DNA of 64,000 bases, from NCBI GenBank assembly GCA_963675665.1, contig OY776510.1, positions 640,001-704,000 of the forward strand, given 5' to 3'. The position numbers were made by a program, and so were the translations under genes. This DNA is from Spirochaetia bacterium. Lineage in GTDB: Bacteria; Spirochaetota; Spirochaetia; UBA9216. Position 1 is the first letter of the stretch. Each line of letters begins with the position of its first letter. Below, piece after piece: positions 8,807 through 57,841 of this stretch. The notes under the pieces were generated by a model. It was given only the letters and a program-made list of their open reading frames with translations. It made no database searches and was not told where the DNA came from.

Positions 8807-8844
8807 GTTATCGATAAAAAAATCTCCAAATCGTCAGCCGATAT

Positions 8845-10062: not shown

Positions 10063-10077
10063 ATTTATATTTTGCTT

Positions 10078-12087
10078 CTAACAGCGTTCAATGTCAACAA
10101 AAGTTGAATGAGTTCTTGAGCCGCCGGAAGGCATTGTCGGTTCTGTTGAAGTAAGTATATTTGAATAACTGCAATCCAGGCAGGCTGTTCCGGGAATAAT
10201 ATCTTCCGAAAGTTCTACGCCTATAGTCAGGCATCCGTCTTTGCTCTTAACTTCTACCGTATCTCCATCGACAATTCCCCTCGCCAGTGCGTCGGTAGTA
10301 TTCATAAGCAGCAGCGGCTGATTTTTTTCCATTATTATAAACTGCGAATTGATCCGTTTTCGCTGGTGCGGCGTGATCAGCTGAATTTTACCGGGCGGCC
10401 GGTAATCGGTGTAAACAGGAAACGGGCTTCCGCCGAGTTTAGAATATTCACCTGAACTTATTTCAATCCTGCCCGAGGGAGTATTCAGCGGGGAACCGTC
10501 CGGATCGGCTATAAAATCCGCGAGCGCAACGCGGGAATCATCCGCGCCGAACCAGATGCCGCGTTCTTTAAATTCGTCCGGTTTGTCAACTTCCGAATTC
10601 CTTAAAAAATGATCCAGCCATGCGGCTTCATCGCGGCCTTCGGTAAACAAGTCCCTGAAGCCGAGCCGTTCAGCGAGCAGGCTGTATATTTCATAATCGG
10701 TCTTCACCCCGGGCGGCGGCTCAACGGCTTTTGCAGAATACAAGAGGAAATTGCCTTCGGGAAAGACTATATCATTGCGTTCCAGAAAATCAGCCGCGGG
10801 CAGCACAACATCGGCCAGTTCGGCGGTCGGGGTCAGAAACATATCATGGGTTACAAAAAAATCAAGCGACGTCAGCGCCTTTGCTGATTTTTTGCTGTCG
10901 GCTCCCTGAAGCATATAATTTCCGCCGCAGTTATAAGCCGCCTTTACAGGAGGACCGTCCGGCAGCCCGGTTAAAACTGCATCCGGCCAGCTGTAAACCG
11001 GAACATACCGCATGTCGGCAAAAGATCCTTTCGGCACGGAGCTGATTTTTCCGCATCGGACCTTTGTCATAGGCCCCCAGATGTTTGCACCGCTCGATCC
11101 GCCTTTTACGCCGGTATTTCCCGTAACAGCCTGCAGAACCATTGCCGACCTGGCTGAATCCTCCCCGCCGAGGGTCCTCTGAATCGACAGACCGGGAATT
11201 AAGGCGGCCGGCTTGTATCGTCTGTAGCAGTCGGCAACCTCCCTGACCGAATCTTCGGATGTTCCGCAGACGACTGATGCCCATTTCGGACTTTTCACCG
11301 GATGCTCGTAGAGCCATTCTTTATATTCGCTGAAACCATGGCAGTATTTGGATATAAAGGCTGAATCTGTTCCGCCGTCCTCGCAGAGATCATATATCAC
11401 CCCGGCAATAAAGGCCGAATCTGTACCGGGTCTGATTGGTATCCATTCGGCATTCAGAGCATCAACCGTGCGGCTTTTTCTCGGATCAACCACAATCATT
11501 TTTACACCCTGATTTCTCAGGAATTTCAATCGGTTAAAAAGCTCGCATCCGAAACGCAGGTCGGCGATATTGGCCCCAAGCAAAAGTACAAAGCGCGTCT
11601 GCATCAGGCTGCCGGCGTCTATTGCGGCATTTGAGGTTCCAAACACATAGGGGGTTACAAAACTTGCCGCGGCGGAACTGTATGACGCCGTTGTTTCGGT
11701 ATATCCGCCGAAAAGTTTCAAAAACCGCTGCGTCAGCGTTGAGGTATTATGAAGCGCGCCCCTGCAGGACCCGCTGCCTCCCAGTCGTATTACCGTAGAG
11801 GCCCCGTAAAGCTTTCGAAGCTGCAACAGCTTTTCCGCAGTATAATCAAGAGCGGCATCCCAGGAGGCCTTTTCCAGCCGGTCCGTTCTGCGGTTAAGCA
11901 AAAGGGGGCTGACGAGACGTTCCGGATGATTTGTAAGCCTGTGTGCATTGTATCCCCTCGCACAGCCGCTCATCCACCTGCCCTTGCGGGGATTGTCGGC
12001 AATTCGTATAACTCTGTTGTCTTTTATTTCGGCAACAAGAGGACAACCCGCCCCGCAGTCTTTGTTGCAGCTAACCGGAACCTTCAT
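10078..12087 (-). CDS. Molybdopterin (Mo-bisPGD) oxidoreductase, DmsA/BisC-like catalytic subunit without Tat signal
   Basis: N-terminal CxxxCxxxC...C cluster, SYSSAA (likely Ser ligand), VDPR, PIRPGTD, TAELADVVLPA, LNTPSGRIE. Start placed at ATG 12087, 6 nt after a -10 box. Confidence 0.85.
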   Translation of the reverse strand: MKVPVSCNKDCGAGCPLVAEIKDNRVIRIADNPRKGRWMSGCARGYNAHRLTNHPERLVSPLLLNRRTDRLEKASWDAALDYTAEKLLQLRKLYGASTVIRLGGSGSCRGALHNTSTLTQRFLKLFGGYTETTASYSSAAASFVTPYVFGTSNAAIDAGSLMQTRFVLLLGANIADLRFGCELFNRLKFLRNQGVKMIVVDPRKSRTVDALNAEWIPIRPGTDSAFIAGVIYDLCEDGGTDSAFISKYCHGFSEYKEWLYEHPVKSPKWASVVCGTSEDSVREVADCYRRYKPAALIPGLSIQRTLGGEDSARSAMVLQAVTGNTGVKGGSSGANIWGPMTKVRCGKISSVPKGSFADMRYVPVYSWPDAVLTGLPDGPPVKAAYNCGGNYMLQGADSKKSAKALTSLDFFVTHDMFLTPTAELADVVLPAADFLERNDIVFPEGNFLLYSAKAVEPPPGVKTDYEIYSLLAERLGFRDLFTEGRDEAAWLDHFLRNSEVDKPDEFKERGIWFGADDSRVALADFIADPDGSPLNTPSGRIEISSGEYSKLGGSPFPVYTDYRPPGKIQLITPHQRKRINSQFIIMEKNQPLLLMNTTDALARGIVDGDTVEVKSKDGCLTIGVELSEDIIPGTACLDCSYSNILTSTEPTMPSGGSRTHSTFVDIERC

Positions 12088-12163
12088 CCTGCTAATATAC
12101 ATTCATTTAAATATCAAAGCAATCTCGACAAAGTCATCCAGCCTTGGTAATATAAGCGCGGAT

Positions 12164-14101
12164 ATGAATACAAGAATTAACAAAGCCTATTTTCTGATCC
12201 CGATAGTATATATTGCGGTGATCGGTTTTTTATTATACATGCAATTTTCCGGTTCCAGATCTTTTCAGGCGGAGGTTTCCGGAATATCGATGAACGGCAG
12301 AACACATGCCGGGGCTCCGGGCAAAGATGATGAAATTACCGAACTGTCGGTCCACTGTAACGGTATTAATTTTTCTTTCGGCAAAAACAACCCGCTGCTG
12401 GTGTTCTCGCAGGACGGACTTACCCACAAAACAGTACCGCAGGATTACCGTGTTACAGCATCCGGAATTGACATCAGACTTACAAAAGGCATCAGCGTCA
12501 GCTTTTATTATTCTCCGAACGACAATGAAATAATTCATATATCCATTACGGCAGAAGATCCGGAATCTATTAAGTACATACATCTTCCGGTAGCTGAAAA
12601 GGAAACCGAACTCAGTTCCATGGAGGGCGTTCCGGTACTCTCGGCCGAATCGGAGACTCTCGGAAGCTTTTTTCTCACCCTTCCGGAATCAGGTACATTC
12701 AATGCTGATAATAATGTCATCGTCATATATCCTGAAGAAACGGAAACAAATGAACTTACCTTTGAAAAAGCTTCTGTTTCAGGACTGGACGCCTTCACCT
12801 ACTGGGTAAGCGGAAATGCCGATCTCATTACGCCGGAACAGCTCTCGCTTAAAATAACCGCCTATATTGAAAATGCCAACGAAAAACTTATGAACGCCCG
12901 TTACAACCAGACCAGGGGCACATGGGCAACCGGAACAGGATTATCCGCTTTCAGTGAAAAAGCGCTGATCATGGCCGCTACCGAAAGCATAGGGACCGCA
13001 TCATATGCCCGCACCATGGAGCTGCTTAACCAGGCGGCGGCAAGCCACAGCCGCGAACTTACCGGTTACAGCTCCGCGCTGTTCGGAAATATAGTAAACA
13101 CAATATGGAGTTACGACGAAGAACTTGATGATAAACCTGCGGAATTGCTGAGAAAAACTGATTCATTTGATTATTCCGTTTTTGAAGAAGACAAACTGAC
13201 GGCTGCTGTTCTGACGGAAGATTCCGCAAAACTGATTGATTCTCTTGTAAAAATGTCTGAAGAGATTAACGGGCACGATCTTACACTTGGCCAGGCCGCA
13301 GCAATGCTTGCCTTTTACTCGGAACTCTCGCTAAAGCAGCCGGAACTTGCTTTGCGCTTCGATAATCTTGAAAATATAATTGAATTATCGATTCTGCCTT
13401 CTCTTAAGGTGCTTTCAGACAGGCTTTTCATAGCAAACAGCAATAATACTTCACAGGTGTATCTTTCACTCAAAACCGGAATGCTGCTCATGAATATGCC
13501 CGGCAAAGATTCCGAAAATAAATATCAGTCAATAGGAGGGGAGCTTGTAAATTCGGTATTGCAGCTCTCGAATGATGAAGGGTATCTGCCTGAAACTGTA
13601 AGCCTGTCCGATACCGGCGATCTTCTTACCGAGGGAATTATTACCCCGGAAACGGTATATCCGCTTTTATCCGGCAGTCCGTACGCTCCGGCTGAAGATT
13701 ATTTTTACGCGGAAACCGGAGAGAAGATCTGCGTGCTTAACCAGGCTGAAACCTTTACTGTTGAGAAAAATGAAACCGGCTACAGAATAGCTTTCGATTT
13801 CCCTGCCGGGCTGACCCATACTTTCGCCGTCAGAAACATCCCGCCGTTCTACCAGATGAATATGCTCGGATACCGATGGAACTCTGATCATCGTTTTCAA
13901 AATTATTCAAGCGGCTGGTGGTATGATCGACAGCACAATACATTATTTGTTAAAATCCGTCACCGGGAAAAAACGGAAGAGCTGGTGATACGAACAGAGA
14001 GACCGCCCGAACCGGCGGCGCCTCCCGTTTCTGAAACTGAAACTCCGGAAACCTCTTCCGGAAATGAAGCAGGAACTGATGCTGCAGAAGCCAACGGCTA
14101 A
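12164..14101 (+). CDS. Membrane-anchored hypothetical protein
   Basis: Long ORF with an N-terminal hydrophobic helix after Met at 12164 and a Pro/Glu-rich tail. The track start (11948) overlaps the divergent gene. Confidence 0.75.
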   Translation: MNTRINKAYFLIPIVYIAVIGFLLYMQFSGSRSFQAEVSGISMNGRTHAGAPGKDDEITELSVHCNGINFSFGKNNPLLVFSQDGLTHKTVPQDYRVTASGIDIRLTKGISVSFYYSPNDNEIIHISITAEDPESIKYIHLPVAEKETELSSMEGVPVLSAESETLGSFFLTLPESGTFNADNNVIVIYPEETETNELTFEKASVSGLDAFTYWVSGNADLITPEQLSLKITAYIENANEKLMNARYNQTRGTWATGTGLSAFSEKALIMAATESIGTASYARTMELLNQAAASHSRELTGYSSALFGNIVNTIWSYDEELDDKPAELLRKTDSFDYSVFEEDKLTAAVLTEDSAKLIDSLVKMSEEINGHDLTLGQAAAMLAFYSELSLKQPELALRFDNLENIIELSILPSLKVLSDRLFIANSNNTSQVYLSLKTGMLLMNMPGKDSENKYQSIGGELVNSVLQLSNDEGYLPETVSLSDTGDLLTEGIITPETVYPLLSGSPYAPAEDYFYAETGEKICVLNQAETFTVEKNETGYRIAFDFPAGLTHTFAVRNIPPFYQMNMLGYRWNSDHRFQNYSSGWWYDRQHNTLFVKIRHREKTEELVIRTERPPEPAAPPVSETETPETSSGNEAGTDAAEANG

Positions 14102-45895: not shown

Positions 45896-46969
45896 TTACT
45901 CTTCCAGAATGTGTATGGAATTCGGGTCCATTGAAAACGAAAGGTCTTCTCCGACCCCGATAATGACTTTGCGCATCGGGTTGTTTTCTGAAATTTCAAA
46001 AATCTTGCCGAATAATTCAACTTCATATTCATGGTGAGATCCCATGAAAACGCTCTTTGTTACAGGCGCCCTGAAATCCTTTCCGCCTATATTGAAAGAC
46101 TCGGGTCGAATCATAAACTGCACTTTTTCTCCGACCGAATGACCGGTGGTTTTTTCGGTCTCGTAAAGCACTCCGTGAACGTCCAGTGTTACTGTCTCGC
46201 CTTTTTCGGCAACAATCTTTCCTTCAAGAATATTCGCCCTTCCGATAAACTGTGCGACAAATTCATTTATGGGTTTCTGGTAGATCTCGCGCGGAGATCC
46301 GACCTGCTGAATTGTTCCGTCTTTCATAATTACAATTTTATCGGACAAACCCATAGCTTCTTCCTGATCATGGGTGACATATATTGAAGAAATTCCAACC
46401 TGTTTCTGAATCTTTCTTATCTCATCCCTCATATGCAGCCTTAATTTTGCATCAAGGTTTGAAAGCGGCTCATCAAATAAAAGAACCCCTGATTCCATTA
46501 TCAATGCCCTTGCAAGAGAAACCCGCTGTTGCTGTCCTCCCGACATTTCCGACGGCACCCTGTCGGCAAAGTCTTCCATTTTCATCAGTTTAAGTATTTT
46601 ACGGACTCTCTCGGCTATCTCCTTTTTAGGCAGCTTCTGCAGCTTGAGTCCGTAGGCAATATTGTCATAGACATTCATATGAGGAAACAATGCATAATTC
46701 TGAAAAACCATTGCCGTATCGCGTTTATCGGGAGTAAAAGACGCGACATTCCTGTCGCCGATATAAATTTCTCCCGATGTCGGGATCTCAAACCCGGCAA
46801 GCATTCTGAGGGTTGTAGTCTTGCCGCAGCCTGAAGGCCCGAGCAGGCAGACAAACTCTCCCGGATTTATTGTTAAATCTATATTGTTTACAGCCTTCAC
46901 CTGTTCGTTTTTATTAGTCACAAAGGTTTTAGTCAGATTTTTCAGTTCGACTTTTATTTTCTCATTCAT
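45896..46969 (-). CDS. ABC transporter ATPase (AfuC/FbpC/PotA-like)
   Basis: [29 protein letters not shown]-like tail. Confidence 0.92.
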   Translation of the reverse strand: MNEKIKVELKNLTKTFVTNKNEQVKAVNNIDLTINPGEFVCLLGPSGCGKTTTLRMLAGFEIPTSGEIYIGDRNVASFTPDKRDTAMVFQNYALFPHMNVYDNIAYGLKLQKLPKKEIAERVRKILKLMKMEDFADRVPSEMSGGQQQRVSLARALIMESGVLLFDEPLSNLDAKLRLHMRDEIRKIQKQVGISSIYVTHDQEEAMGLSDKIVIMKDGTIQQVGSPREIYQKPINEFVAQFIGRANILEGKIVAEKGETVTLDVHGVLYETEKTTGHSVGEKVQFMIRPESFNIGGKDFRAPVTKSVFMGSHHEYEVELFGKIFEISENNPMRKVIIGVGEDLSFSMDPNSIHILEE

Positions 46970-46988
46970 CAGGTGTTGTCTCCTCGTT

Positions 46989-48689
46989 TTATTCGGTGCT
47001 GATATTTTTTATTGCAAGTTTTATAATGATCATCGCCGCGCTTACTATCAGGATCAGGATTGTACAGAAAGCTGAAGCTACGCCCATCCGGCCGACGTCT
47101 ATCTGCGCCATTATGGATGTCGTTAAAAGCTTGTAACGGGCTGAAATCAGAAAGATTACCGTGCTGACCAGGGTCATGCTTCGGGCAAATGTAAAAATCA
47201 ACCCGTTTAAAAAGGCATTCTTAATCATGGGAATTGTGATGCTTGTAAAAACCTTCCTGCTCGAAGCGCCGAGCACATTTGCAGCTTCCTCAATTGTGGG
47301 ATCTATCTGCTGAAGAGACGTGATTCCGGAGCGGACCCCGACCGGCAGGCTTCGTATGATAAACGCCATAATGATTATAAAAGCCGTTCCCGTTATAGGA
47401 GGGATGATTGTCAGCCCGAAGATCCCGTAGGTCTTGTTATAACTGATTACGTATCCGAGACCGATAATTGTTCCCGGAATGGCCAGCGCCATAATAGTTA
47501 AAAATTCTATAAACGACTTGCCGAAGAATTTTTTCCTTACAATAAGGAACGCAATTATCATGGCGAGAGTTCCGGATACCGGCGTTGCGATAGCGGCAAG
47601 AGTTGTTGTCGTTATAACCGGCTGAAACAGCTTGGGCTTAAAAATATACCTGTAATGATCCAGCGTCGGCGTATAATTGACGCCCCAGAGCTTTACAAAC
47701 GATCCTATGGGGATCAGAATGTACATCATAATAACAAAGACGGTAAAAACCAAAAGAATAATTGTTGCAGTAACTACAATTCCCCTGGAACTTATAAGGT
47801 CCCTGTGTCTTGAAACCTTTCCGGTAACAGTTACGTAAGATTTCTTGCTGACATAGTATTTCTGAAACACAAATATCGAAATTGAAACAGTCAACAGAAT
47901 CATCGCAAGGGCCGTTGCGGTTCCGAACTGGTAATTTCCTATTCCCTCCTGGTAAATCTTCACAGCCACAGTAGTAAAATTACCGCCGATAACAACCGGA
48001 TTGGCAAAATCAGCTATAGACTGAATAAAGACAAGAAGAAAAGCATTCGCCAGCCCCGGGACCATCAGGGGAAGAGTTACCGAGGTAAAAACCTTAAACC
48101 TTGTAGCCCCCAAATCTCTTGACGCCTCTTCAACCGACGGATCGATTCTCTGAAGCAATGACACAAGCATCATATATGCTATCGGAAAAAAACTGAGCGA
48201 CTGGACAAGAACAAGACCGTGAAAACCGTAGATTTCGGCATCTTTCATGCCCAGCAAGCCTCTTGTAATTAACCCTACCCGGCCGAAAAGAAGAATGGCG
48301 GAAAGTGCAACAACAAACGGCGGTGAAATAATCGGAAGAATGGCAATAAAATCAAAGATTTTCTTGAAACGAATCTTCATATAGGTTGTTACATAGGCAA
48401 AAATAAACCCTACAAAAACCGAAATCGACGCTGTAACAACCCCGAGAAAAATCGTATTGATTAAAATTTTTGTATTTCCATGCATCAGAAATACATCTTT
48501 ATAATTACCCAGAGAAACTCCGTTGTCGGTCGTAAGGCTTTCAACAAGGATATTATAAAGCGGTATCAGGATAAAAAAGACTACCAGCAAAAGGGTAAAA
48601 ATAATCACGGCAAGAAGGGTCGGATCATTTTTTAAATTAGTCAGGGTCCTAAGATTACTTTGAAATTTCAATTTCCCGGTATTTGTCAT
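46989..48689 (-). CDS. ABC permease, duplicated domain (AfuB/FbpB-like)
   Basis: Two EEA...LGA loops; ISPPFV; ADFANP. Confidence 0.9.
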   Translation of the reverse strand: MTNTGKLKFQSNLRTLTNLKNDPTLLAVIIFTLLLVVFFILIPLYNILVESLTTDNGVSLGNYKDVFLMHGNTKILINTIFLGVVTASISVFVGFIFAYVTTYMKIRFKKIFDFIAILPIISPPFVVALSAILLFGRVGLITRGLLGMKDAEIYGFHGLVLVQSLSFFPIAYMMLVSLLQRIDPSVEEASRDLGATRFKVFTSVTLPLMVPGLANAFLLVFIQSIADFANPVVIGGNFTTVAVKIYQEGIGNYQFGTATALAMILLTVSISIFVFQKYYVSKKSYVTVTGKVSRHRDLISSRGIVVTATIILLVFTVFVIMMYILIPIGSFVKLWGVNYTPTLDHYRYIFKPKLFQPVITTTTLAAIATPVSGTLAMIIAFLIVRKKFFGKSFIEFLTIMALAIPGTIIGLGYVISYNKTYGIFGLTIIPPITGTAFIIIMAFIIRSLPVGVRSGITSLQQIDPTIEEAANVLGASSRKVFTSITIPMIKNAFLNGLIFTFARSMTLVSTVIFLISARYKLLTTSIMAQIDVGRMGVASAFCTILILIVSAAMIIIKLAIKNISTE

Positions 48690-48723
48690 CTAACCTCCAG
48701 ATATTCACCAGTCGGATTAACAA

Positions 48724-48749
48724 GGGGATATTCCCGAAAGAACATCCCC
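48724..48749 (-). terminator. Hairpin downstream of the solute-binding gene
   Basis: GGGGATATTC-CCGAAA-GAACATCCCC. Confidence 0.45.
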
Positions 48750-48756
48750 CTTGATA

Positions 48757-49803
48757 TTATTCAGTTGGAGCAGTTGTGCTTGTTTCTACGCTGAAACGTT
48801 CAACCAGTCTTTTCTTGTTTTCACCGGCCCACTGAAAATTGTAATCTATCAGTTTTGTATCCTTAATCGGCATGGCTTCCTCAGGCGGCATTGCATCCTT
48901 GTTTGTAAGAAACTGGAAAGATCCTACCGTTTTGCCCATTTCCTGAACATCTTTGGTTAAAACCCAGTCGATAAACATTTTTGCATTTTCCTGATCCGGT
49001 CCGTTCTTGAGGAGCGCTACTCCGCCAATCTCATAACCTGTACCTTCAACCGGCGCAGAAATAATTATGTCTTTATAACCTTCTTTTTTATACTTGATTG
49101 CATCATGAAGAAATGTGATTCCTATAGTTGCTTCGCCCAAACCGGCCATTCTTCCCGGGGCAGTACCTGATTTGGTATACTGTCTGACCTGGGGACTGAA
49201 TTTCTTGAAGTATTCCATTGCTTCATCTTCACCCACCATCTGAACCATGGTAGCAAGCATTGTATATGCCGTTCCTGATGATCCAGGATGTGCAACAACT
49301 ATTTCCTGGTTATATTCCGGTTTCAGGAAGTCCGACCATGATGTCGGCATTTTAAGACCTTTCTCTTTCAGTATTGCCTGATTTCCGACAAAACCGAGGT
49401 ATCCGATATAAATTCCGGTCCATATCCCGTTGGGGTCCTTAAACCCTTCCCTGATATTAACAGCTTCCGGTGAAATATACGGCTCAATGATTCCTTCTTC
49501 ATTTGCAGCAACAATTCCGTCAACCGGACCGCCGTACCATACAGACGCCGTCATATTGTCTTTTTCCGCTTTCAGACGTGCAAGAATTTCCCCGCTGCTC
49601 ATCCTGACAAACTCTGTTTTAATTCCGGTAAGAGCTTCAAATTCCTCGGCTATCATGGCTGCATGATCTTCCTGGAGTCCCGCGTAAAAAACCAGAGAAC
49701 CTTTGTCTTGCGCAGCCGAATCCTGAGATCCGCTGGCAAAAACAACTCCGGATGCAAGCACGGCCAGAAGAACAGAGAGAATGACAATTCTTTTTCCAAA
49801 CAT
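48757..49803 (-). CDS. ABC solute-binding protein (AfuA-like; Fe3+/sugar-phosphate family)
   Basis: RMSSGE, WYGG, HPGSSGTAYT, YTKSG, FLHD, EGTGYEIG. Confidence 0.85.
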   Translation of the reverse strand: MFGKRIVILSVLLAVLASGVVFASGSQDSAAQDKGSLVFYAGLQEDHAAMIAEEFEALTGIKTEFVRMSSGEILARLKAEKDNMTASVWYGGPVDGIVAANEEGIIEPYISPEAVNIREGFKDPNGIWTGIYIGYLGFVGNQAILKEKGLKMPTSWSDFLKPEYNQEIVVAHPGSSGTAYTMLATMVQMVGEDEAMEYFKKFSPQVRQYTKSGTAPGRMAGLGEATIGITFLHDAIKYKKEGYKDIIISAPVEGTGYEIGGVALLKNGPDQENAKMFIDWVLTKDVQEMGKTVGSFQFLTNKDAMPPEEAMPIKDTKLIDYNFQWAGENKKRLVERFSVETSTTAPTE

Positions 49804-49876
49804 TTCAATTCCTCCTATTAATTATGAATAATACTATAAAACAGCTTTTTGCTGTTGAATACAGCGGGAACCCAAT

Positions 49877-49915
49877 TGTTACCAGACTGTTACAGCATTG
49901 TAACCATATTGTTAC
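49877..49915. promoter_or_regulatory. Four TGT(T/A)AC direct repeats at 11-bp period; probable OmpR/PhoB-family binding site
   Basis: TGTTAC 49877, TGTTAC 49888, TGTAAC 49899, TGTTAC 49910. Confidence 0.72.
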
Positions 49916-49991
49916 TTGCGGAATTATGCTTTTCATGCAATTTTCTATAAATCAATTATTATTTATAGACAGCACAGGTATTAATAGTAAA

Positions 49992-51230
49992 ATGAAAAGC
50001 GATATGGCCAGCAGCAGCGGCAATAAAGCAAATATTGAATTCACCGTTAAAAAAATTAAACTCCTGCGATCCGGAGTTTTTACAGCAATTATTATCCTTT
50101 TTATGATTATCAACTCCGCAGAAAACCTGATTGTACTCCTGTCCATGACGGCAGGTTATTCAATAGTGGCAATTTTTCACGGCTACTGCGTTCTGAGCAG
50201 AAAGCAGCATCTTCTTAATTCCGCTGTATTGATTTTACCAGAGCTGATTATTTCCAACGCATTCCTTCTTTTTATAAACCCGGGTCTGCTGCTGCCTTTT
50301 ACATGTCTGCAGACTGTTGAACTTGCCGTTGAAAACCGCGGCCTTAAATATATCTATGCCCTGGCGGGAACCGCAGCAGCGGGAATGGCCGCCGGGTTTA
50401 TTATAAGAAACGAACAGAAATTCATCATTTATACCATTCCTGCAATATTAATTGTCATCCTGATATTCAAACTCATTCATCTGCAGGATTTCAGAAATAA
50501 AAATAAATATGAGTATATGAAAAAACTTGTTGATAACAAAAACAAGCTGTTATCCACACTTACCCATGAACTGAGAACGCCGCTGGCTGTAATAAAAACC
50601 TCAAACGAGCTGATCATGGAAGAACGGCCCGGCCCGATAAACGAAACACAAAGAACCCTGATTTTTTCATCACTCGAGAATACAAAACGGCTGAATTCCC
50701 TGGTTGAGAATATTCTTTCACAGGTGAAAGTTGAATTTGCGTGGTTTTCCATGAAACAGCAGCCGCTGGACATACGCAACCTTATTCGCAAAACAGCTGT
50801 CGATATAAACCCATATCTTGAAACCAAAAAGCAGCAGCTTAAATATAATTATCCGTCGCTTATGTCAAAAACCATAGGTGATAAACGATGGCTTGAACAG
50901 GTTTTGCTGAACCTTATCCACAACGGAAGCAAAAACAGCCCCGACAATTCGGAAATTACGATTTCGGTACAGGAAAATGAACAGTGCATAGTAATATCAG
51001 TCCACGACAGGGGCTCCGGAATAAAAAGCCGTGAAATCCCGAATGTATTCAACGAGTTTTACCAGTCGACTGATCCGGCGAAAAACCTTAACGAAGGCGC
51101 CGGCCTGGGGCTGACCATTGTAAGGGATATTATTGAGAAACATAAAGGCGAAGTATATATCAGTTCGCTTCCCCAAACAGGAACAACAGTTTCATTCACA
51201 TTGCCTATATACAAAGGAGTCTTTTTATGA
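49992..51230 (+). CDS. Multi-TM sensor histidine kinase
   Basis: HELRTPL, NLIHN, DRGSG, GAGLGL. Start codon uncertain (49992 or 50004). Confidence 0.85.
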   Translation: MKSDMASSSGNKANIEFTVKKIKLLRSGVFTAIIILFMIINSAENLIVLLSMTAGYSIVAIFHGYCVLSRKQHLLNSAVLILPELIISNAFLLFINPGLLLPFTCLQTVELAVENRGLKYIYALAGTAAAGMAAGFIIRNEQKFIIYTIPAILIVILIFKLIHLQDFRNKNKYEYMKKLVDNKNKLLSTLTHELRTPLAVIKTSNELIMEERPGPINETQRTLIFSSLENTKRLNSLVENILSQVKVEFAWFSMKQQPLDIRNLIRKTAVDINPYLETKKQQLKYNYPSLMSKTIGDKRWLEQVLLNLIHNGSKNSPDNSEITISVQENEQCIVISVHDRGSGIKSREIPNVFNEFYQSTDPAKNLNEGAGLGLTIVRDIIEKHKGEVYISSLPQTGTTVSFTLPIYKGVFL

Positions 51231-51910
51231 AACAGACGGTTCTGATAATTGAAGATGATCCCCACCTTGTAACCATCCTTGATTTTCTAATGCGCGATGA
51301 AGGCTATAACGTCGTTACTTCACCGTCGGGAGAGGAGGGTCTTGCAATAATTAAAAGAGAAAAAATCGATTTGGTTATTCTTGATATTAACCTGCCCGGA
51401 ATGAACGGGCTTGACGTATGCAACAGAATAAAGATTTCAGAACAAATCCCGGTAATTTTTCTCAGCTGCAGAGACCAGGACAGCGACGTTATTTCCGGAC
51501 TGGAAAACGGCGCCGAGGATTATATGCGTAAACCCTTTAACCACAGGGAACTTGCGTTAAGAGTTAAAAAACTGCTTGAAAGATCATCCGATCAGAACAT
51601 GAAAACAGCAATAGAAACCGGTCAATTATTTATAAAAACCGATCGGGAAGAGGTTTACTTCAATTCGCAGGAGATCAAACTGACTCCCGTTGAGTATAAA
51701 CTTCTTGAAGTGCTGTTCAGAAGACTTGACTGGGTGCAGTCCTGGCAGGTCCTTCTGAAAGACGCCTGGGGCTATGAAGACTGGGAAGGGGGCAGGGAAA
51801 TGGTCAAGGTCAACATCAGGCGATTGCGAAAAAAAATTGAGCCGGATCCTTCTCAACCGGTTTATCTTCTGACCGAAAGAGGCAGGGGCTATAAACTGGC
51901 CAGACTATAG
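51227..51910 (+). CDS. OmpR-family response regulator
   Basis: IEDD, LDINLP, KPF, LTPVEY, V.IRRLRKKIE.DP, RG.GY. Confidence 0.93.
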   Translation: MKQTVLIIEDDPHLVTILDFLMRDEGYNVVTSPSGEEGLAIIKREKIDLVILDINLPGMNGLDVCNRIKISEQIPVIFLSCRDQDSDVISGLENGAEDYMRKPFNHRELALRVKKLLERSSDQNMKTAIETGQLFIKTDREEVYFNSQEIKLTPVEYKLLEVLFRRLDWVQSWQVLLKDAWGYEDWEGGREMVKVNIRRLRKKIEPDPSQPVYLLTERGRGYKLARL

Positions 51911-52996
51911 ATGAACGCATATTTGACGCTTAAAAATCTTACGAAAATTTTCAATCCCGGCAGAGAAGACCAGGTGGCGGCCCTTAATCATTTCAGCATG
52001 ACGGTTAACAAGGGCGATTTTGTTACAATTCTGGGACCGTCGGGCTGCGGGAAAACTACAGCATTGCGGATGATTGCAGGGTTTGAAATTCCTACATCCG
52101 GAGAAATCTATATTGATAATAAAAACATCTCCAACCTGACTCCGGATAAGCGCAATACTGCAATGGTTTTTCAGAATTATGCCCTGTTTCCTCATCTTAC
52201 TGTATTTGAAAACATTGCTTACGGATTAAAAGTTCGGGGAGCGTCCAGGGATATTATTAAAAACGATGTTGCCATGGCCTGCCAGGTGGTAAATATGGTG
52301 GGCCTTGAAAAACGATACCCGGGAGAACTGTCGGGGGGGCAGCAGCAGCGTGTTGCTCTTGCTCGGGCCCTGGTAATGAAACCGAAAATGATTCTTTTCG
52401 ACGAACCCCTGTCAAATCTTGATTTGAAACTGAGACTGCAGACCAGAACCGAAATTAAACGGGTCCAGCAGATGCTCGGCATAACTGTACTTTATGTAAC
52501 CCATGATCAGTCCGAGGCGCTCAGTATGTCGGATAAAATAATAATAATGAATCACGGCAAGGTAGTTCAAACAGGAACACCCGAAGAAATCTACAACAAC
52601 CCGGCAAACGCTTTTGTAGCCGACTTTATCGGGAATGCAAATTTCATATCCGCCTATGCAGAAGAAATCGAAGGAAAAAGAATTACTGTCAGACTCGGAA
52701 AAAGAATCATCGTTGTTAAAAATGAAAACCCGGAAGAAGTTTTCAGCGAAGGCGAGGAAGTTTACCTTTCAATTAAGCCCGAAGCAATACAAATAAGCGG
52801 AAAAGAAACCGATTTTTCCGGTACAGTCCAGGTTAAATCATTTCTTGGTCCGCATACCGAATACAAGATCGAATTTGAGGGATCTTTTATAAATGTATAC
52901 CAGCACAATACAGGCGGAGACTCAAAAATTTATAAGCCGGGAGACAGGGTCTGTCTGAAATTCGATAAGGCGCTTTGTCACGTTTACAAGAGATAA
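51911..52996 (+). CDS. Second ABC ATPase paralogue
   Basis: [25 protein letters not shown]; near-identical motifs to 45896-46969. Confidence 0.9.
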
Positions 52997-53039
52997 TTAC
53001 GACCTGATCGATTTTTTTCACAGTCTTTTATAATATCTA

Positions 53040-53107
53040 TTGACTATATAACATAACTATTATATATTACTAACAGTTGCCAGGCGCAACAGTTGCGCAA
53101 AACAACT
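53040..53107 (+). promoter_or_regulatory. Promoter and tandem MarR-type operators
   Basis: TTGACT(53040)-17-TATATT; GTTGC-N5-GCAAC (53076-90) and AGTTG-N7-CAACT (53091-107). Confidence 0.65.
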
Positions 53108-53121
53108 TTACGGAGTAATAT

Positions 53122-53517
53122 GTGATAGAATTAATCCTTGAACTGAAACAGAAATGCCGATTCGACAGTGAGATTGGAGAATCTTTCAGCCTGAAAGAAC
53201 GCGAAGTAGCGTTTCTTTCAACGATTGCCGCCAATAAAAGCTTAACATCAAAGGAACTGTCTTCTCTTTCCGGCCTTTCTCCCTCCAGAAGCAGCCGTGT
53301 AATCTCTGCGCTATATGAAAAAGGCTATATTTTAATGGAGCATAACCGCTCCGATCGCAGACTGATCAATATCAGTCTTACACAAAAGGGTAAAGACTGT
53401 GTCGACGGTATTGAAAAAGAAAAAAGGAATTGTGAATTCGATTTACTGGCCGGACTGTCGGATGATGAAAAAGCAACCGTTAAAAAAGGCCTTAATATTC
53501 TTCTGAGGAAAATGTAA
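53122..53517 (+). CDS. MarR-family regulator
   Basis: HTH plus DRR..I.LT.KG wing; GTG start after GGAG; three Cys. Confidence 0.85.
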   Translation: MIELILELKQKCRFDSEIGESFSLKEREVAFLSTIAANKSLTSKELSSLSGLSPSRSSRVISALYEKGYILMEHNRSDRRLINISLTQKGKDCVDGIEKEKRNCEFDLLAGLSDDEKATVKKGLNILLRKM

Positions 53518-53580
53518 TATTTTGACCTTTTTAGAGGAGAAATAATAAAATTGAATCTTCATATTCAATTTTAAGGGGGA

Positions 53581-54243
53581 ATGATGACTGAAACAAATAC
53601 GGTAAAGGCAATTAATATACGTTATTCGGATCTTGCCGAAACAAGCTGCTGCCTTTCATGCGGCGGAGCTGTAAATCACAGCAAGGTCTCGAAAGGTGAA
53701 ATTTGTGTGGATCTCGGCAGCGGACGGGGAACGGATGCAATCCGCATGGCTGAAGAAGTCGGAGCCGAAGGAATGGTCTACGGTCTGGATCTGTCGGACG
53801 GGATGATCAGGAAAGCTGAAAAAACCGCAAACCGGCTCGGTGTAGAGAACGTGAAATTTATTCAGACTGATCTGGAAAAAATGCCGTTAGGCGACAATTC
53901 GGCAGATCTTGTTATTTCAAACTGCGTCATTAATCACGCGGAAAATAAACAGAACGTCTGGAACGAGGTTTACAGGATTCTGAAGACCGGGGGACGGTTT
54001 GTAGTCAGCGATATCTACTCCAGTGAACCGGTGCCTGAAGAATACCGCACAGATCCGGAGGCTGTAGCTGAATGCTGGGCAGGATCCGTAACACGCGAAA
54101 TCTATCTCAGCCAGCTTGAAAAAGCCGGATTCAGGAATATCGAAATTCTTGAAGAGAGTAATCCCTATCCCAAGGGAAAAATAGAAGTCAGCAGCTGGAC
54201 GATACTCGGCTACAAATCCGGGTGTTGCTGTTGTAACACTTAA
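53581..54243 (+). CDS. SAM-dependent methyltransferase, arsenite methyltransferase (ArsM)-like
   Basis: SCCLSCGG, DLGSGRG.D, ISNCVINH, GGRFVVSD, ECWAG (the ArsM-type Cys positions); C-terminal GCCCC. Confidence 0.78.
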   Translation: MMTETNTVKAINIRYSDLAETSCCLSCGGAVNHSKVSKGEICVDLGSGRGTDAIRMAEEVGAEGMVYGLDLSDGMIRKAEKTANRLGVENVKFIQTDLEKMPLGDNSADLVISNCVINHAENKQNVWNEVYRILKTGGRFVVSDIYSSEPVPEEYRTDPEAVAECWAGSVTREIYLSQLEKAGFRNIEILEESNPYPKGKIEVSSWTILGYKSGCCCCNT

Positions 54244-54285
54244 AACCTTCCATGGAAGGCAAGAAATATTTTTAACGGAGGTTTC

Positions 54286-54381
54286 ATGAAATCACTGATC
54301 AAAAAGAAACCGGAAGGCAAAAAAGAAACAGCGCAATGTTGTGCAAAGCTTTCCAAGGTTGTGGCAGGCTGCCACGACTAG
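54286..54381 (+). CDS. 31-aa Cys-containing peptide, putative RiPP precursor: MKSLIKKKPEGKKETAQCCAKLSKVVAGCHD
   Basis: Strong GGAGG SD just upstream, ATG...TAG, directly upstream of the radical SAM/SPASM gene and followed by a hairpin. Confidence 0.8.
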   Translation: MKSLIKKKPEGKKETAQCCAKLSKVVAGCHD

Positions 54382-54389
54382 ACTCGTCC

Positions 54390-54424
54390 CCGGACCGGGG
54401 GATTTTCCACCGGTCCGGATTTTT
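54390..54424 (+). terminator. GC-rich hairpin plus T5 between the peptide gene and the maturase
   Basis: CCGGACCGG...CCGGTCCGG-A-TTTTT. Confidence 0.7.
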
Positions 54425-54457
54425 ACCTGACACATGGACAATAACGGAGAAAAACTG

Positions 54458-55774
54458 ATGCAGTTGTCGAAACATAATATAATATCCGAAATAAAAGACT
54501 CTGATGATTACTATATCATCAATCCTCTCAGTAAAAACGCTGATATTCTTGATGCCGATACAGCAAAAGCGCTGCTTAACGGTGAATTTACAAACCGTGA
54601 CGAGCTTATCGAAAAAGGCTATCTGGCAGATGCCGACGAGGAAGAGAAACGTTTTAAATCGGGGTATCTTGATTTTCTCGACAACCGTGAAGATGACGAA
54701 ATTCAGATATTTTATGTTCCGACCTATTCCTGTAACTTCAATTGTACTTACTGTTATCAGGAAGGTTACGGCAATGAACAATTCGGTGATGCCGGGGCGG
54801 TAACAGAGGCTTTTTTCAGATATGTTGATACTGAATTCGCAGGGAAGCGGAAATATATCACCGTTTTCGGCGGCGAGCCCCTTCTTCCGGACAATGTCAC
54901 ACGTAATAAAATCGAACTTATTATCAGGGAAGCAAATAAACGAAATCTGTCGCTGGCATTCGTAACAAACGGATGGGCTCTGGAAAGCTATGTCCCGCTT
55001 CTTAAAACCGCTTCTGTTCGTGAGGTTCAGGTGACCCTGGACGGCCCGGAAGAAGTTCATAATAAACGAAGACCGCTTCACAGCGGAGCAGGGACTTTTA
55101 AAAAGGTCGTTAACGGCATAAATTCCGCTCTTGAAGCCGGCATACCGATAAACCTTCGCGCTGTTATTGATAAAGAAAATCTTCCGCACCTTCCTGAACT
55201 GGCCCAATTCGCTGTAGATCAGGGCTGGACCGGCAGATCGAACTTTAAAACACAGCTGGGACGTAATTATGAACTGCATTATTGTCAGGAAAATGCAGCA
55301 AAACTCTACGACAGGCTTTCAATGTATGAAGATTTATACGAACTGATAAAGAATAATCCTGTCGTAATGGAGTTTCACCGGCCGGCATTTTCTATAAGCC
55401 GTTTTCTTTTTGACAACGGTGATATGCCTGACCCGCTGTATGATTCCTGCCCCGGATGTAAAACCGAATGGGCTTTTGATTACAGCGGAAACATTTTTTC
55501 ATGTACGGCCACTGTCGGTAAACCGGGGGAAAGCCTGGGAACCTTCTACCCGGAAATTACCACCAGGGAAGAAGCGATTGAGGCATGGCAGGAACGTGAT
55601 GTAACAACAATACCCGAATGCCTTAACTGCGAACTCAGGCTTGCGTGCGGAGGAGGTTGTGCATCAGCAGCAAAAAACAGAACAGGGACACTGAATTCGC
55701 CGGACTGCAGACCGGTAAAAGGTTTATTGACATTGGGTCTTTCGCTGTATTTCAACGAAGCGAAAGCAGAATAA
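54458..55774 (+). CDS. Radical SAM/SPASM-domain peptide maturase with RRE-like N-terminus
   Basis: CNFNCTYC, FGGEPL, TNG, TLDGP...H..RR; SPASM C...C and CxxC-x5-CGGGC...C; N-terminal ~55-aa region ending L..KGYL; GGAGA SD before ATG 54458. Confidence 0.88.
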   Translation: MQLSKHNIISEIKDSDDYYIINPLSKNADILDADTAKALLNGEFTNRDELIEKGYLADADEEEKRFKSGYLDFLDNREDDEIQIFYVPTYSCNFNCTYCYQEGYGNEQFGDAGAVTEAFFRYVDTEFAGKRKYITVFGGEPLLPDNVTRNKIELIIREANKRNLSLAFVTNGWALESYVPLLKTASVREVQVTLDGPEEVHNKRRPLHSGAGTFKKVVNGINSALEAGIPINLRAVIDKENLPHLPELAQFAVDQGWTGRSNFKTQLGRNYELHYCQENAAKLYDRLSMYEDLYELIKNNPVVMEFHRPAFSISRFLFDNGDMPDPLYDSCPGCKTEWAFDYSGNIFSCTATVGKPGESLGTFYPEITTREEAIEAWQERDVTTIPECLNCELRLACGGGCASAAKNRTGTLNSPDCRPVKGLLTLGLSLYFNEAKAE

Positions 55775-55804
55775 CACGTTAGACAATTTTATAGGAGTGA
55801 AAAT

Positions 55805-57088
55805 ATGGCTGGAAAGATTAAGGAAATACAGGCAGCAGATTTTGAAAAAGAGGTGCTCGGTAAAGAACGCGTAGTAGTGGATTTTTATTCCACGGAATGT
55901 CCGCCCTGTGAAGCGCTGGCATCAAAATATGAAACGCTGAGCTACATTTACGGTGATGATATAAGCTTTATAAAAATATTCAGACAGGGAAACCGGGAAC
56001 TCTCCGAAAAGCTGGACGTCAGCGGCTCTCCTACGGTAATCTTTTACAAAAACGGAGAAAGAGTCGGAGACACTCTTACCGGCGGCATTAAACGCTCGGA
56101 TCTGATGAAAAACCTCGATGCGCTTCTGCCTGCAGAAAAAGCCGAAGAAATACACAACGAAATTAAACCTGTTGTAACCAACACCGATGTCGTTGTCCTG
56201 GGCGGAGGCCCGGCCGGCCTGACAGCAGGAATATATCTTGCGCAGGCGCATCTTAAAACAATACTGATAGACACCGCCCTTCCCGGGGGCTATGTAGCAA
56301 CAACCCACCAGGTATCAAATTACCCGGGCTTTATCGAACCTCAGCAGGGATTTATGCTCAGCCATTTCATGAGCGAACAGGCAAAAGCCAACGGCGTGGA
56401 ATTCAGAAGCGCGGTAGAAGTATCAAAAGTCGATCTGCGCAACAAGAGCCTTCTTGTAGACGGGTATGAAACAATTGAGGCAAAAAAGATAGTTATTGCG
56501 ACAGGCTCCAGACCGCGTCCGCTTGATATTCCGGGAGAAAAAGAGTATGCCGGGCAGGGCATAAGTTACTGCGCGACCTGTGACGGAAAATATTTTGAGG
56601 ACAAGGAAATAGTGGTAATTGGAGGCGGCAATTCAGCTATTGAAGAATCGCTGTTCCTGTCAAGGTTTGCAAAGAAAATAACCATTGTCCACCAGTTTGA
56701 TACCCTGCAGGCCAATAAAGAAGCGCAGAAAAAAATATTTGCCGACAAAAAAATCAATTTCATGTTTGAACATGAACCCCGTGAGTTTAAAAAATACGGA
56801 AACATGGACATGGGAGTAATTGTTGAAAACCTGAAAACCGGTGAAAAGTCAGAAGTACGAACCAACGGCATCTTTGTCTTTGTGGGTTTTATTCCGAACC
56901 TGGACGTTATTCATGACGAAATGGAGCTGGACCAATGGGGATACCTCAAAACCAGTGAGACTATGGAAACAAATCTGCCCGGGGTTTTCGCTGCAGGTGA
57001 CGTACGTACAAAACAGTACCGCCAGATAACAACCGCCGTATCAGACGGCACAATTGCGGCAATAACAATATCCAAAGAACTTACTTAA
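55805..57088 (+). CDS. trxB: Thioredoxin-thioredoxin reductase fusion
   Basis: N-terminal VDFYSTECPPC Trx domain; GGGPAG, SYCATCDG, GGGNSA, AAGD, RQI.TA..DG. Confidence 0.88.
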   Translation: MAGKIKEIQAADFEKEVLGKERVVVDFYSTECPPCEALASKYETLSYIYGDDISFIKIFRQGNRELSEKLDVSGSPTVIFYKNGERVGDTLTGGIKRSDLMKNLDALLPAEKAEEIHNEIKPVVTNTDVVVLGGGPAGLTAGIYLAQAHLKTILIDTALPGGYVATTHQVSNYPGFIEPQQGFMLSHFMSEQAKANGVEFRSAVEVSKVDLRNKSLLVDGYETIEAKKIVIATGSRPRPLDIPGEKEYAGQGISYCATCDGKYFEDKEIVVIGGGNSAIEESLFLSRFAKKITIVHQFDTLQANKEAQKKIFADKKINFMFEHEPREFKKYGNMDMGVIVENLKTGEKSEVRTNGIFVFVGFIPNLDVIHDEMELDQWGYLKTSETMETNLPGVFAAGDVRTKQYRQITTAVSDGTIAAITISKELT

Positions 57089-57095
57089 TAAACGG

Positions 57096-57125
57096 TATCG
57101 GCGGCGGGAGGCCCTGCTGCCGATA
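57096..57125. terminator. Hairpin between convergent trxB and lspA
   Basis: TATCGGCGGCGGG-AGG-CCCTGCTGCCGATA. Confidence 0.6.
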
Positions 57126-57129
57126 TCAA

Positions 57130-57663
57130 TTATTCCAGATCAGATACAGTCTTTCCTTTTTTTTCTTTTCCGTTCTCGGCTTTCAGCATCAGTATCACAA
57201 AAACCAGCGCTCCGAATGTAACCGACAAATCTGCAACATTAAGAATACCGGTACGAAACCGTCCTATACCGAAATTCATAAAATCGATTACGATACCGCT
57301 GTTGAATATCCGATCATACAGGTTTCCCACTCCCCCGCCGATAACACATGATAAACATGCCAGCTGCCCGGGGGGAATATTTCCGCTGAAAGCAGTATAG
57401 AAAATCGCTACAGCAACGATAAGAGAGGGAAGCAATACCAGCAGAACCGATTTTAACGGTACCGGCATACTGCCCCCGAACCCCAGGAATGCTCCGTCGT
57501 TTTCCGCATAATGCAGAATAAATAAATTCCCGACTATTTGAATTGTTCCTTCGCCTTTAATATGTTCAACTGCATAAATCTTTGTTACGCGGTCAACTGC
57601 AAAATTTGCAGCAGAAATAAGAATTACAACTATCAGCAGAAAGAAGCCTTTTTTAATGCTCAT
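57130..57663 (-). CDS. lspA: Lipoprotein signal peptidase II
   Basis: D..TK, N.GAF, GG..GNL.DR, V.DF, NVAD. Confidence 0.92.
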   Translation of the reverse strand: MSIKKGFFLLIVVILISAANFAVDRVTKIYAVEHIKGEGTIQIVGNLFILHYAENDGAFLGFGGSMPVPLKSVLLVLLPSLIVAVAIFYTAFSGNIPPGQLACLSCVIGGGVGNLYDRIFNSGIVIDFMNFGIGRFRTGILNVADLSVTFGALVFVILMLKAENGKEKKGKTVSDLE

Positions 57664-57720
57664 GCGAATAATATAGCACAATCACTGCTTATTTCTCAAC
57701 AGCAATATCTGCAAACAATA

Positions 57721-57749
57721 TTGACGCCCGGGCTGAACAACTGTAATAT
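57721..57749 (+). promoter_or_regulatory. tRNA promoter
   Basis: TTGACG-17 bp-TAATAT. Confidence 0.65.
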
Positions 57750-57767
57750 GCATATTAGAATAACACC

Positions 57768-57841
57768 GGGGCTGTAGCTCAGATGGCTAGAGCGGTTGGT
57801 TCGCAATCAACAGGCCGTGGGTTCGACTCCCATCAGCTCCA
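57768..57841 (+). tRNA. tRNA-Ala (anticodon CGC), CCA not encoded
   Basis: Acceptor GGGGCTG/CAGCTCC with G3:U70, D arm GCTC/GAGC, anticodon stem GTTGG-TTCGCAA-TCAAC, T arm GTGGG-TTCGACT-CCCAT. Confidence 0.96.

Follow-up and report, generated by a model that had tools for sequence, protein, structure and literature searches.

Here we describe a gene cassette in a stretch of 64,000 nucleotides (nt) from a Spirochaetia bacterium (GenBank assembly GCA_963675665.1, contig OY776510.1, positions 640,001 to 704,000 of the forward strand; hereafter the window), in which a small ArsM-like methyltransferase is encoded together with a short cysteine-containing peptide and a radical S-adenosylmethionine (SAM) enzyme. 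The unit is the core of one operon and a widely conserved cassette that resembles those for peptides made by ribosomes and then modified after translation (RiPPs). Five closely packed genes lie on the plus strand: (i) marR, which starts with GTG and encodes a MarR-family regulator of 131 amino acids (aa) (53122–53517; Pfam PF01047, 32.6 bits); (ii) a SAM-dependent methyltransferase gene (53581–54243; 220 aa), found as an open reading frame (ORF), for which NF008823 is the best NCBIfam model; (iii) a precursor peptide gene (54286–54381; 31 aa, MKSLIKKKPEGKKETAQCCAKLSKVVAGCHD), recognized as an ORF and by a codon-position test; (iv) the gene of a radical SAM/SPASM maturase (54434–55774; 446 aa; PF04055), the N-terminal domain of which resembles a RiPP recognition element (RRE); and (v) a gene in which thioredoxin (Trx, with CPPC) is fused to thioredoxin-disulfide reductase (TrxR, with CATC) (55805–57088; 427 aa; PF00085 and PF07992). 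The convergent lspA gene on the minus strand (57130–57681) closes the unit. The original prediction, made from the letters of the sequence, was that an ArsM-type methyltransferase is coupled here to a peptide maturase and that the locus may carry out arsenic- or metalloid-peptide chemistry. The cysteines on which it drew are all present: the LSCG, SNCVIN and ECWAG motifs, an extra CC and a CCCC tail in the methyltransferase, three cysteines in the peptide (C18, C19 and C29) and three in MarR (C12, C93 and C104).

The precursor peptide consists of a Lys-rich leader (MKSLIKK...) and a core, AQCCAKLSKVVAGCHD, that ends at the stop codon, and GGAGG is located at 54277–54281, 4 nt before the ATG. 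The core follows the pattern AQCCAK-x-S-x4-GCHD-stop. No variation is seen among 57 distinct peptide sequences at A16, Q17, C18, C19, K21, G28, C29, H30 or D31, and in every one translation stops directly after the Asp. In 74 distinct DNAs of the 16-codon core, the minor bases number 96, 118 and 564 at codon positions 1, 2 and 3, respectively, and the synonymous codons of the invariant residues are all in use, with Ala and Gly each employing all four. From this pattern, the short ORF encodes a protein and is subject to strong purifying selection. The core is better conserved than the cassette enzymes. Compared with the NCBIfam models, the peptide gave no match up to an E-value of 10. A 40-aa ORF (MLCKAFQGCGRLPRL...; 54336–54458, plus strand) overlaps the peptide gene out of frame and has look-alikes in relatives; we rejected it as a gene and regard it as a by-product, since the codon-position test assigns the conservation to the peptide frame.

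Co-inheritance of the cassette genes

A scan of one genome per species yielded at least 275 loci with a relative of the radical SAM enzyme, and the best 80 of them were analysed. The methyltransferase gene lies directly upstream of the radical SAM gene, on the same strand, in 72 of the 73 loci with at least 900 nt of upstream sequence; in the exception (L027) it is broken into three frameshifted pieces. Every one of the 83 related loci with flanking sequence upstream of the radical SAM gene has the peptide gene, a count that leaves out four further loci starting at the radical SAM gene itself. The Trx::TrxR fusion accompanies 70 of the 80 loci, downstream in 63 and upstream of the methyltransferase in seven. 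Across loci the identities of all three enzymes to their counterparts in the window co-vary; for the methyltransferase and the radical SAM enzyme the Spearman coefficient is 0.61 (n = 77), a descriptive figure only, as the loci are kin.

The reciprocal test was made on 301 genomes of the phylum to which the window belongs, 34 of which contain the radical SAM gene. Outside the genome of the window itself there are 35 matches to the short type of methyltransferase (28 at 50–69% identity and seven at 36–46%), and 33 of these genes adjoin a radical SAM match on the same strand. One of the two exceptions is a deletion remnant (L098, G040:C132), in which the methyltransferase is followed by only the last 80 residues of TrxR, and the other (L099, G115:C16) is an additional, orphan copy, the genome having a complete cassette elsewhere. 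Canonical-length ArsM genes, by comparison, lie near a radical SAM gene in one of 28 matches, in genome G057. A functional coupling of methyltransferase, peptide and maturase, as asserted in the original prediction, is thus supported in both directions of search. The prediction would have been refuted had the methyltransferase homologues not co-occurred with the other two genes, and they do co-occur. The window's own genome (one contig of 5.15 Mb, 96% complete) has a single cassette.

Six loci (L091–L096) form a divergent subfamily, in which the enzymes are 34–43% identical to those of the window and TrxR 48–53%, and in which the peptides retain VAQCC[AST]K-x7-GCHD. Here the methyltransferase is without the N-terminal CC (SLGC...), and the peptide has an extra CC about 10 residues upstream of the core. 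In three loci labelled Gemmatimonadota (L068, L076 and L078) the CC of the enzyme is displaced and the peptide bears an additional one, with a CCTT-type string both in the N-terminus of the enzyme and in the leader of the peptide. These arrangements suggest that the cysteines of peptide and enzyme act in one thiol network. Another locus (L097) is without both CC motifs, and so there is no strict compensation between the CC of the enzyme and that of the peptide.

The loci carry the taxon labels Spirochaetota, Bacteroidota, Ignavibacteriota, Gemmatimonadota, Myxococcota and Bacillota. The two loci assigned to Bacillota (L026 and L044, on contigs labelled Syntrophomonadaceae and Bacillota) bear genes with the Por_Secre_tail sorting domain of type IX secretion, their cassette genes are near-identical to those of Ignavibacteria, and their methyltransferases pair with Ignavibacteria ones in the tree (supports 99 and 93). 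Because of the type-IX-secretion genes and this pairing, the Bacillota labels probably reflect mis-binning rather than true presence.

The miniature ArsM and its partner enzymes

When the methyltransferase is compared with PDB sequences by phmmer, ArsM/AS3MT chains rank first (E = 1e-22 to 7e-20), and in the alignment to CmArsM (PDB 4fr0/4kw7) LSCGG, SNCVIN and ECWAG stand opposite YGCGS (Cys72), SNCVCN (Cys174) and ECLGG (Cys224), respectively. The residues concerned, C27, C115 and C165, are the equivalents of the As(III) site and are invariant in 77 of 77 cassette methyltransferases, as well as in 58 of 58 sequences of another alignment. An AlphaFold2 model built on a 58-row alignment has a predicted local distance difference test score (pLDDT) of 92.1, and the top PDB matches that Foldseek finds for it are all ArsM/AS3MT (TMq 0.71–0.79), the nearest being 4fr0 at 0.79. 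The enzyme is a miniature ArsM: it retains the SAM domain and the As(III)-site domain but lacks some 58 residues at the N-terminus as well as the C-terminal domain. It thus shares with ArsM/AS3MT (CmArsM, PDB 4fr0/4fsd; NF008823) a Rossmann SAM domain followed by an As(III)-binding domain, and the Trx::TrxR fusion gene of the cassette has its parallel in the reductant of the Trx/TrxR type on which ArsM depends. In contrast to these enzymes, the mini-ArsM is only 220 aa long, has CCLSC near its N-terminus, belongs to a separate clade, and adjoins a peptide gene and a radical SAM maturase, almost never ars genes. Databases label some members as arsenite methyltransferase.

The segment missing from the N-terminus bears, in CmArsM, the fourth, N-terminal cysteine Cys44, needed for the first methylation step; the CC pair at residues 23 and 24 could replace it. 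Together with C27, the equivalent of Cys72, this pair forms the string CCLSC in 66 of the 77 cassette methyltransferases. A survey of 150 family representatives finds CCLxC in just two settings: in eight proteins of the short type, and at the C-terminus of an ArsM–ArsL fusion protein, where it reads CCLRC. In ArsL, according to a preprint (bioRxiv 10.1101/2024.02.01.577332), the C-terminal RCCLKC binds As(III), holds no Fe–S cluster and is required for formation of the C–As bond. The likeness between CCLSC and the ArsL tail, a resemblance of motifs and not homology, is the most specific link to arsenic that we found at the sequence level. A predicted complex of methyltransferase, peptide and SAM gave ipSAE values of 0.02 and 0.17 (the mark being 0.32), which are evidence neither for nor against contact.

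A HMMER pass over 1.84 billion representatives returned 333 at E ≤ 1e-30, and the best 150 of these were scored against NCBIfam. They split in two: the ArsM cut-off is passed by most proteins whose length is at least about 240 aa, and a set of roughly 200–228 aa fails it. In a tree of 160 rows, all 32 cassette methyltransferases group with 16 short and two long representatives, and 104 long and six short ones lie across the separating branch (SH-aLRT, a likelihood-ratio branch test, 83). A second tree, in which six unrelated methyltransferases of the window's own genome served as the outgroup and five cassette members of the divergent subfamily were added, places all 22 cassette proteins and 13 short representatives in one clade (SH-aLRT 83) and all 45 sampled canonical ArsM proteins in a separate clade (SH-aLRT 88); both trees are quick searches with these supports below 95, and the outgroup sits on long branches. 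The cassette protein of locus L094, in the divergent subfamily, is the same sequence as one of the short representatives (P0253).

The radical SAM enzyme fits no curated, named maturase family. Its best NCBIfam matches are RiPP maturases that are uncharacterised or of the thioether type, and the scores are far below the respective cut-offs: 129.3 bits for TIGR04463 (cut-off 525), 128.6 for CefB (600), 123.4 for the geopeptide maturase (400), 102.6 for PapB (340) and 76.2 for SCIFF TIGR03974 (425), with Clo7bot and DynA also among the matches; ESM Atlas gave just generic radical-SAM cluster names. The CX3CX2C motif (C100, C104 and C107) and seven SPASM cysteines (C339, C357, C396, C399, C405, C409 and C425) are invariant in all 83 sequences. 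An eighth cysteine of the SPASM region, C342, was considered as completing the ligation of auxiliary cluster I, and this was dropped because it is present in only 60 of the 83. In the AlphaFold2 model (pLDDT 89), residues 16–85 form three strands followed by three helices, as in an RRE, and the nearest solved relative, by both sequence and fold, is the thioether synthase CteB (5wgg), to which the Foldseek alignment extends over 475 columns including the N-terminus at 16% identity. At the level of the predicted fold, then, there is evidence that an N-terminal RRE is present. With CteB/SCIFF and PapB/freyrasin-type maturases the enzyme has in common the RRE-like N-terminus, the CX3CX2C motif, the seven-Cys SPASM domain and a neighbouring short precursor that contains cysteines. 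It differs from them in its low identity and scores, and in being partnered with a methyltransferase and a reductase; moreover, the SCIFF precursor has six cysteines in forty-five residues, whereas the cassette peptide has three in 31 and ends in GCHD. An ORF of 326 aa runs antisense within the radical SAM gene (54299–55279, minus strand); it is unsupported and almost certainly spurious.

The original prediction also pointed to the pairing of ArsM with radical SAM enzymes in the arsenosugar (ArsS) and arsinothricin (ArsL) pathways, a parallel that proves to be conceptual only. Neither ArsL (NF040542) nor ArsS (TIGR04167) is among the 25 best of the 72 NCBIfam matches of the radical SAM enzyme, and BLASTP against an ArsM–ArsL fusion (P0246) detected no similarity to the ArsL domain (best E = 0.77). 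Judged by its sequence relationships, the enzyme is a CteB-like peptide maturase with RRE and SPASM, not a relative of ArsS or ArsL.

The Trx::TrxR fusion scores 322.7 bits with TIGR01292, slightly below the cut-off of 343.45, and all four of its redox cysteines (CPPC and CATC) are present in 72 of 72 sequences. Among the MarR orthologues linked to a cassette, C12 is retained in 12 of 12, C104 in 11 of 12 and C93 in seven of 12.

Control elements and neighbouring genes

Several candidate control elements were found in the intergenic spacers. Upstream of marR there is a candidate sigma-70-like promoter, TTGACT-17-TATATT (53040–53068, plus strand), based on consensus match alone, and between it and marR a direct repeat of 9 nt, AACAGTTGC, occurs twice with a 16-nt spacing (53072–53096) and may be an operator. 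A second candidate operator precedes the methyltransferase gene: an inverted repeat of 11 nt without mismatch, TAAAATTGAAT-N6-ATTCAATTTTA (53546–53573), which overlaps the -10-like hexamer of another promoter-like site (53522–53551). It was rejected as a conserved MarR operator: the repeat is absent from the equivalent spacer in 10 related loci and is therefore lineage-specific. In relatives the end of marR is about 10–20 nt ahead of the methyltransferase gene. Between the peptide stop codon and the radical SAM start, a GC-rich hairpin of 9 bp followed by ATTTTT (54390–54424, plus strand; minimum free energy -26.3 kcal/mol, z = -2.74) is a candidate partial terminator (attenuator). A crude rule, applied without a shuffled control, finds a hairpin plus T-run in 29 of 77 related loci, and a regulatory role for this element is, from sequence, a lead only. 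An Rfam scan of 52800–57800 at E-values up to 1 revealed no riboswitch, giving a single chance-level match (HOTAIR_3, E = 0.52).

When 145 ORFs in the flanks of 17 diverse loci were scanned with Pfam, no further gene proved to be conserved across phyla. Copies in Bacteroidales have a sigma-54 response regulator and kinase upstream (15–18 loci) and a YceI-like gene downstream (16 loci); MarR is found in the spirochaete copies and a few others. The MarR regulator noted in the original prediction is lineage-specific. Just 5' of marR in the window (45896–52996) there are two related ATP-binding cassette (ABC) ATPase genes, at 45896–46969 (minus strand) and 51911–52996 (plus strand), with an iron(III)-type ABC permease, a binding protein and a histidine kinase/response regulator pair between them. 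No association of this ABC and two-component region with the cassette was seen at other loci.

Possible chemistry of the cassette

The reading that we put forward, tentatively and short of calling it probable, is that the mini-ArsM methylates a thiophilic metalloid delivered or carried by the peptide. Which genes belong together, that they are inherited as a set, which residues never vary and how the proteins fold is shown above; the substrate, the type of cross-link, the order of steps and a contact between peptide and methyltransferase we infer, as follows. The radical SAM enzyme would bind the Lys-rich leader through its N-terminal RRE-like domain, and would then modify the AQCCAK-x-S-x4-GCHD core, most likely by cysteine-centred C–S (thioether-type) chemistry as in CteB. 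The mini-ArsM would hold a metalloid at its ArsM-type three-cysteine site, to which most copies add CCLSC with the spacing of the ArsL RCCLKC; As(III) or its methylated form MAs(III) is the prime candidate, and Sb, Se or Te are alternatives. The metalloid would be brought by the cysteine peptide, or still be bound to it, and be methylated with SAM. Each reductive methylation would leave a disulfide, which the dedicated Trx::TrxR would reduce with NAD(P)H. Since no protease, exporter or immunity gene belongs to the set, the product is probably retained in the cell and has its function there.

The strongest internal argument for metalloid methylation is one of coherence. ArsM turnover forms disulfides that are reduced by Trx/TrxR, and an invariant As(III)-type triad with a private disulfide reductase suits this chemistry and not simple methylation of a peptide. 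Furthermore, gshA (PF04262) was not found in the window's own genome (96% complete), so that a thiol carrier made from a peptide would duplicate nothing in this organism. Also in favour are the co-inheritance, the fold nearest to that of ArsM/AS3MT, the CCLSC string, the invariant redox cysteines of Trx::TrxR, the CteB-like traits of the maturase and the ars genes adjoining three loci.

A number of observations weigh against it. The methyltransferase reaches only 199.3 bits with its best model, the arsenite methyltransferase NF008823, against a cut-off of 263, and covers model positions 59–233 of 272, without the first 58 or so and the last 39 or so; a search of its own genome with this model gave 197.8 bits, also under the cut-off. 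The cassette methyltransferases stand beside, not within, canonical ArsM, a placement that the trees support moderately. Neither of the additional cysteine clusters is universal: the N-terminal CC (C23 and C24) is retained in 67–68 of the 77 sequences, and the CCCC tail (C215–C218), which the original prediction had listed, in 24–42 of the 77 per position, a variability that rules the tail out as essential. Seven amply flanked loci (L014, L046, L052, L061, L063, L074 and L077) are without Trx::TrxR. If thioethers are formed, they would take away the same thiols that are supposed to carry the metalloid. Of these, together with the genomic context considered below, the rare ars neighbours, the regulators other than ArsR, the separate clade and the consumption of thiols are the strongest counter-arguments. 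One of the seven loci without the fusion, L014, has a close relative (L021) that retains it, and we count it with L027, L098 and L099 among the decayed cassettes.

Genes for arsenic resistance, as a full or partial set, flank only three of 91 loci (L049, L053 and L101), and two of these, L049 and L053, are related. L049 has Trx_3, Acr3, ArsP, Trx and DsbD_TM upstream, and L053 has an ArsR-like gene, Trx_3, ArsP, Trx and DsbD_TM downstream. The third locus, L101 (G057:C75), from a genome of 63% GC in the phylum of the window, has arsP and an arsR-arsM-acr3-arsC series convergent on the radical SAM–methyltransferase pair (stretches 507–6443 and 6878–13714), with an arsM of canonical length (287 aa) and an arsC of the low-molecular-weight protein tyrosine phosphatase type; its peptide gene (10401–10499) and Trx::TrxR (12458–13714) are displaced, and a Trx fragment remains at 6397–6864. 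Three of 91 is more than expected at random but far from a rule. The regulators are MarR or the sigma-54 two-component pair, and never ArsR save in the neighbouring ars operon of L101. As the original prediction had stated, no arsR, arsB, acr3 or arsC lies near the locus within the window. In the whole genome of 5.15 Mb there is no Acr3 and no other ArsM-like gene above E = 1e-15; one match to the ArsB family lies 2.9 Mb away, and one ArsC-like match is below threshold. The genome also holds selD. Canonical ArsM is present in seven of the 34 cassette genomes, six of the seven being of one genus, compared with 20 of the 267 others; because it occurs alongside the cassette, the two are probably not redundant. 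Taken together, the arsenic chemistry proposed in the original prediction fits the cysteine triad and the reductase, is weakened by clade, family score and gene neighbourhood, and is hypothetical.

In five complete genomes of 2.7–2.9 Mb from one genus (G015, G042, G065, G085 and G215), an ArsM gene of canonical length contains one in-frame TGA. A selenocysteine form of arsenite methyltransferase appears in a table of a review (PMC13188914), and the in-frame TGA fits such a form.

The scarcity of ars genes, the placement outside canonical ArsM by both score and tree, and the strict linkage of methyltransferase, peptide and radical SAM enzyme all speak for a rival reading in which no metalloid is involved. 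In that case the ArsM-like enzyme would methylate the core cross-linked by the radical SAM enzyme (on S, N or O), the product would be a methylated intracellular peptide, and Trx::TrxR would only keep the cysteines reduced before maturation. Seven loci of the Ignavibacteria/Melioribacter type, with a second small methyltransferase after the radical SAM gene, as in RiPP tailoring clusters, are consistent with this. However, an enzyme of this kind has no evident need for the three cysteines of the As(III) site, kept without exception down to 34–43% identity, nor for a CCLSC like the tail of ArsL, and a dedicated NAD(P)H-driven reductase implies that a disulfide arises at every turnover, whereas plain methyl transfer makes none. 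We consider methylation of the peptide alone somewhat unlikely.

The extreme conservation of the core across phyla, with its nine invariant positions, is typical of cofactors and not of antibiotics, and so the peptide might instead be the source of a redox cofactor or thiol buffer, like mycofactocin and pyrroloquinoline quinone (PQQ), cycled by Trx::TrxR under oxidative or reactive-sulfur stress, with the methyltransferase as one tailoring step. The absence of export, protease and immunity genes agrees with this, as do neighbours at single loci that include AhpC/TSA, OsmC, rhodanese, YeeE-type sulfur transport and superoxide dismutase, and the two conserved cysteines of MarR; thiol-sensing MarR proteins have conserved cysteines. 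As in the mycofactocin and PQQ systems, the precursor of the cassette is small, strongly conserved and has its key residues at the very C-terminal end, the radical SAM/SPASM enzyme bears an RRE, and there is no exporter. Unlike them, the conserved set of the cassette contains neither a peptidase nor a cofactor-using dehydrogenase, and the radical SAM enzyme scores 58 bits with the mycofactocin family, against a cut-off of 265. No conserved partner oxidoreductase adjoins the cassette, the sulfur- and oxidant-type neighbours vary by locus, and the distribution is patchy (34 of the 301 genomes). A cofactor of this type seems to us improbable.

The metalloid could also be placed on the peptide in a more radical way. 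The peptide might be, in effect, a detached ArsL-like cysteine tail, whose CC...C thiolates present As(III) (or Sb or Se) to the SPASM-type radical SAM enzyme; the latter would forge a carbon–metalloid bond, the mini-ArsM would methylate, and Trx::TrxR would reset the thiols. In arsinothricin biosynthesis, too, a radical SAM enzyme (ArsL) pairs with an ArsM-type methyltransferase, and a flexible CC..C motif of ArsL holds As(III) for radical chemistry, to which the CCLSC of the cassette methyltransferase and the QCCAK...C of the free peptide are parallels. The differences are considerable: the two radical SAM enzymes have no sequence similarity, ArsL is without SPASM domain and RRE, and its cysteine tail is part of the enzyme, whereas the cysteine motif of the cassette is on a separate ribosomal peptide. 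We regard this as a long shot; if true, the product would be the first ribosomal organo-arsenical (organo-metalloid) peptide.

Two further explanations can be dealt with briefly. A secreted, bacteriocin-like ranthipeptide or sactipeptide would account for a CteB-like maturase with RRE, a short cysteine-containing precursor and a terminator-like hairpin after the precursor gene, but genes for transport, leader cleavage by a peptidase and immunity are missing from the conserved set, the core does not vary between phyla where antimicrobial cores diversify, and the cassette is single-copy, all of which makes an antimicrobial very doubtful. An ordinary resistance arsM with an unrelated RiPP locus as its neighbour, or a pathway to organoarsenicals of the ArsS/ArsL type, is hardly credible in spite of NF008823 being the best NCBIfam match and of the arsenite methyltransferase label that databases give to some members, because co-inheritance across phyla rules out chance adjacency and the radical SAM enzyme has neither similarity to the ArsL domain nor ArsL or ArsS among its 25 best family matches.

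No description of the cassette was found in a full-text search of the literature, and the methyltransferase, the peptide and the radical SAM enzyme all fall outside the curated families, so that the system appears to be undescribed. New in this study are the position that the methyltransferase takes with respect to canonical ArsM, the reciprocal count of co-occurrence, the divergent subfamily with relocated CC motifs, the resemblance of CCLSC to the ArsL tail, the locus adjacent to an ars operon in G057, and the likely mis-binning behind the Bacillota labels. The cassette unites radical-SAM peptide maturation with ArsM-type thiol–metalloid methylation, two well-studied activities never shown working together, and adds a reductase of its own that draws on NAD(P)H. 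Uncultured anaerobes commonly have the cassette. If the mini-ArsM does methylate a peptide-borne metalloid, the cassette would show how anaerobes without glutathione present arsenic-like elements for methylation, and would be relevant to the arsenic cycle of groundwater, sediments and paddy soils. Otherwise, the product would still be a new peptide-derived intracellular molecule, with a function of such importance that nine residues are frozen across phyla.

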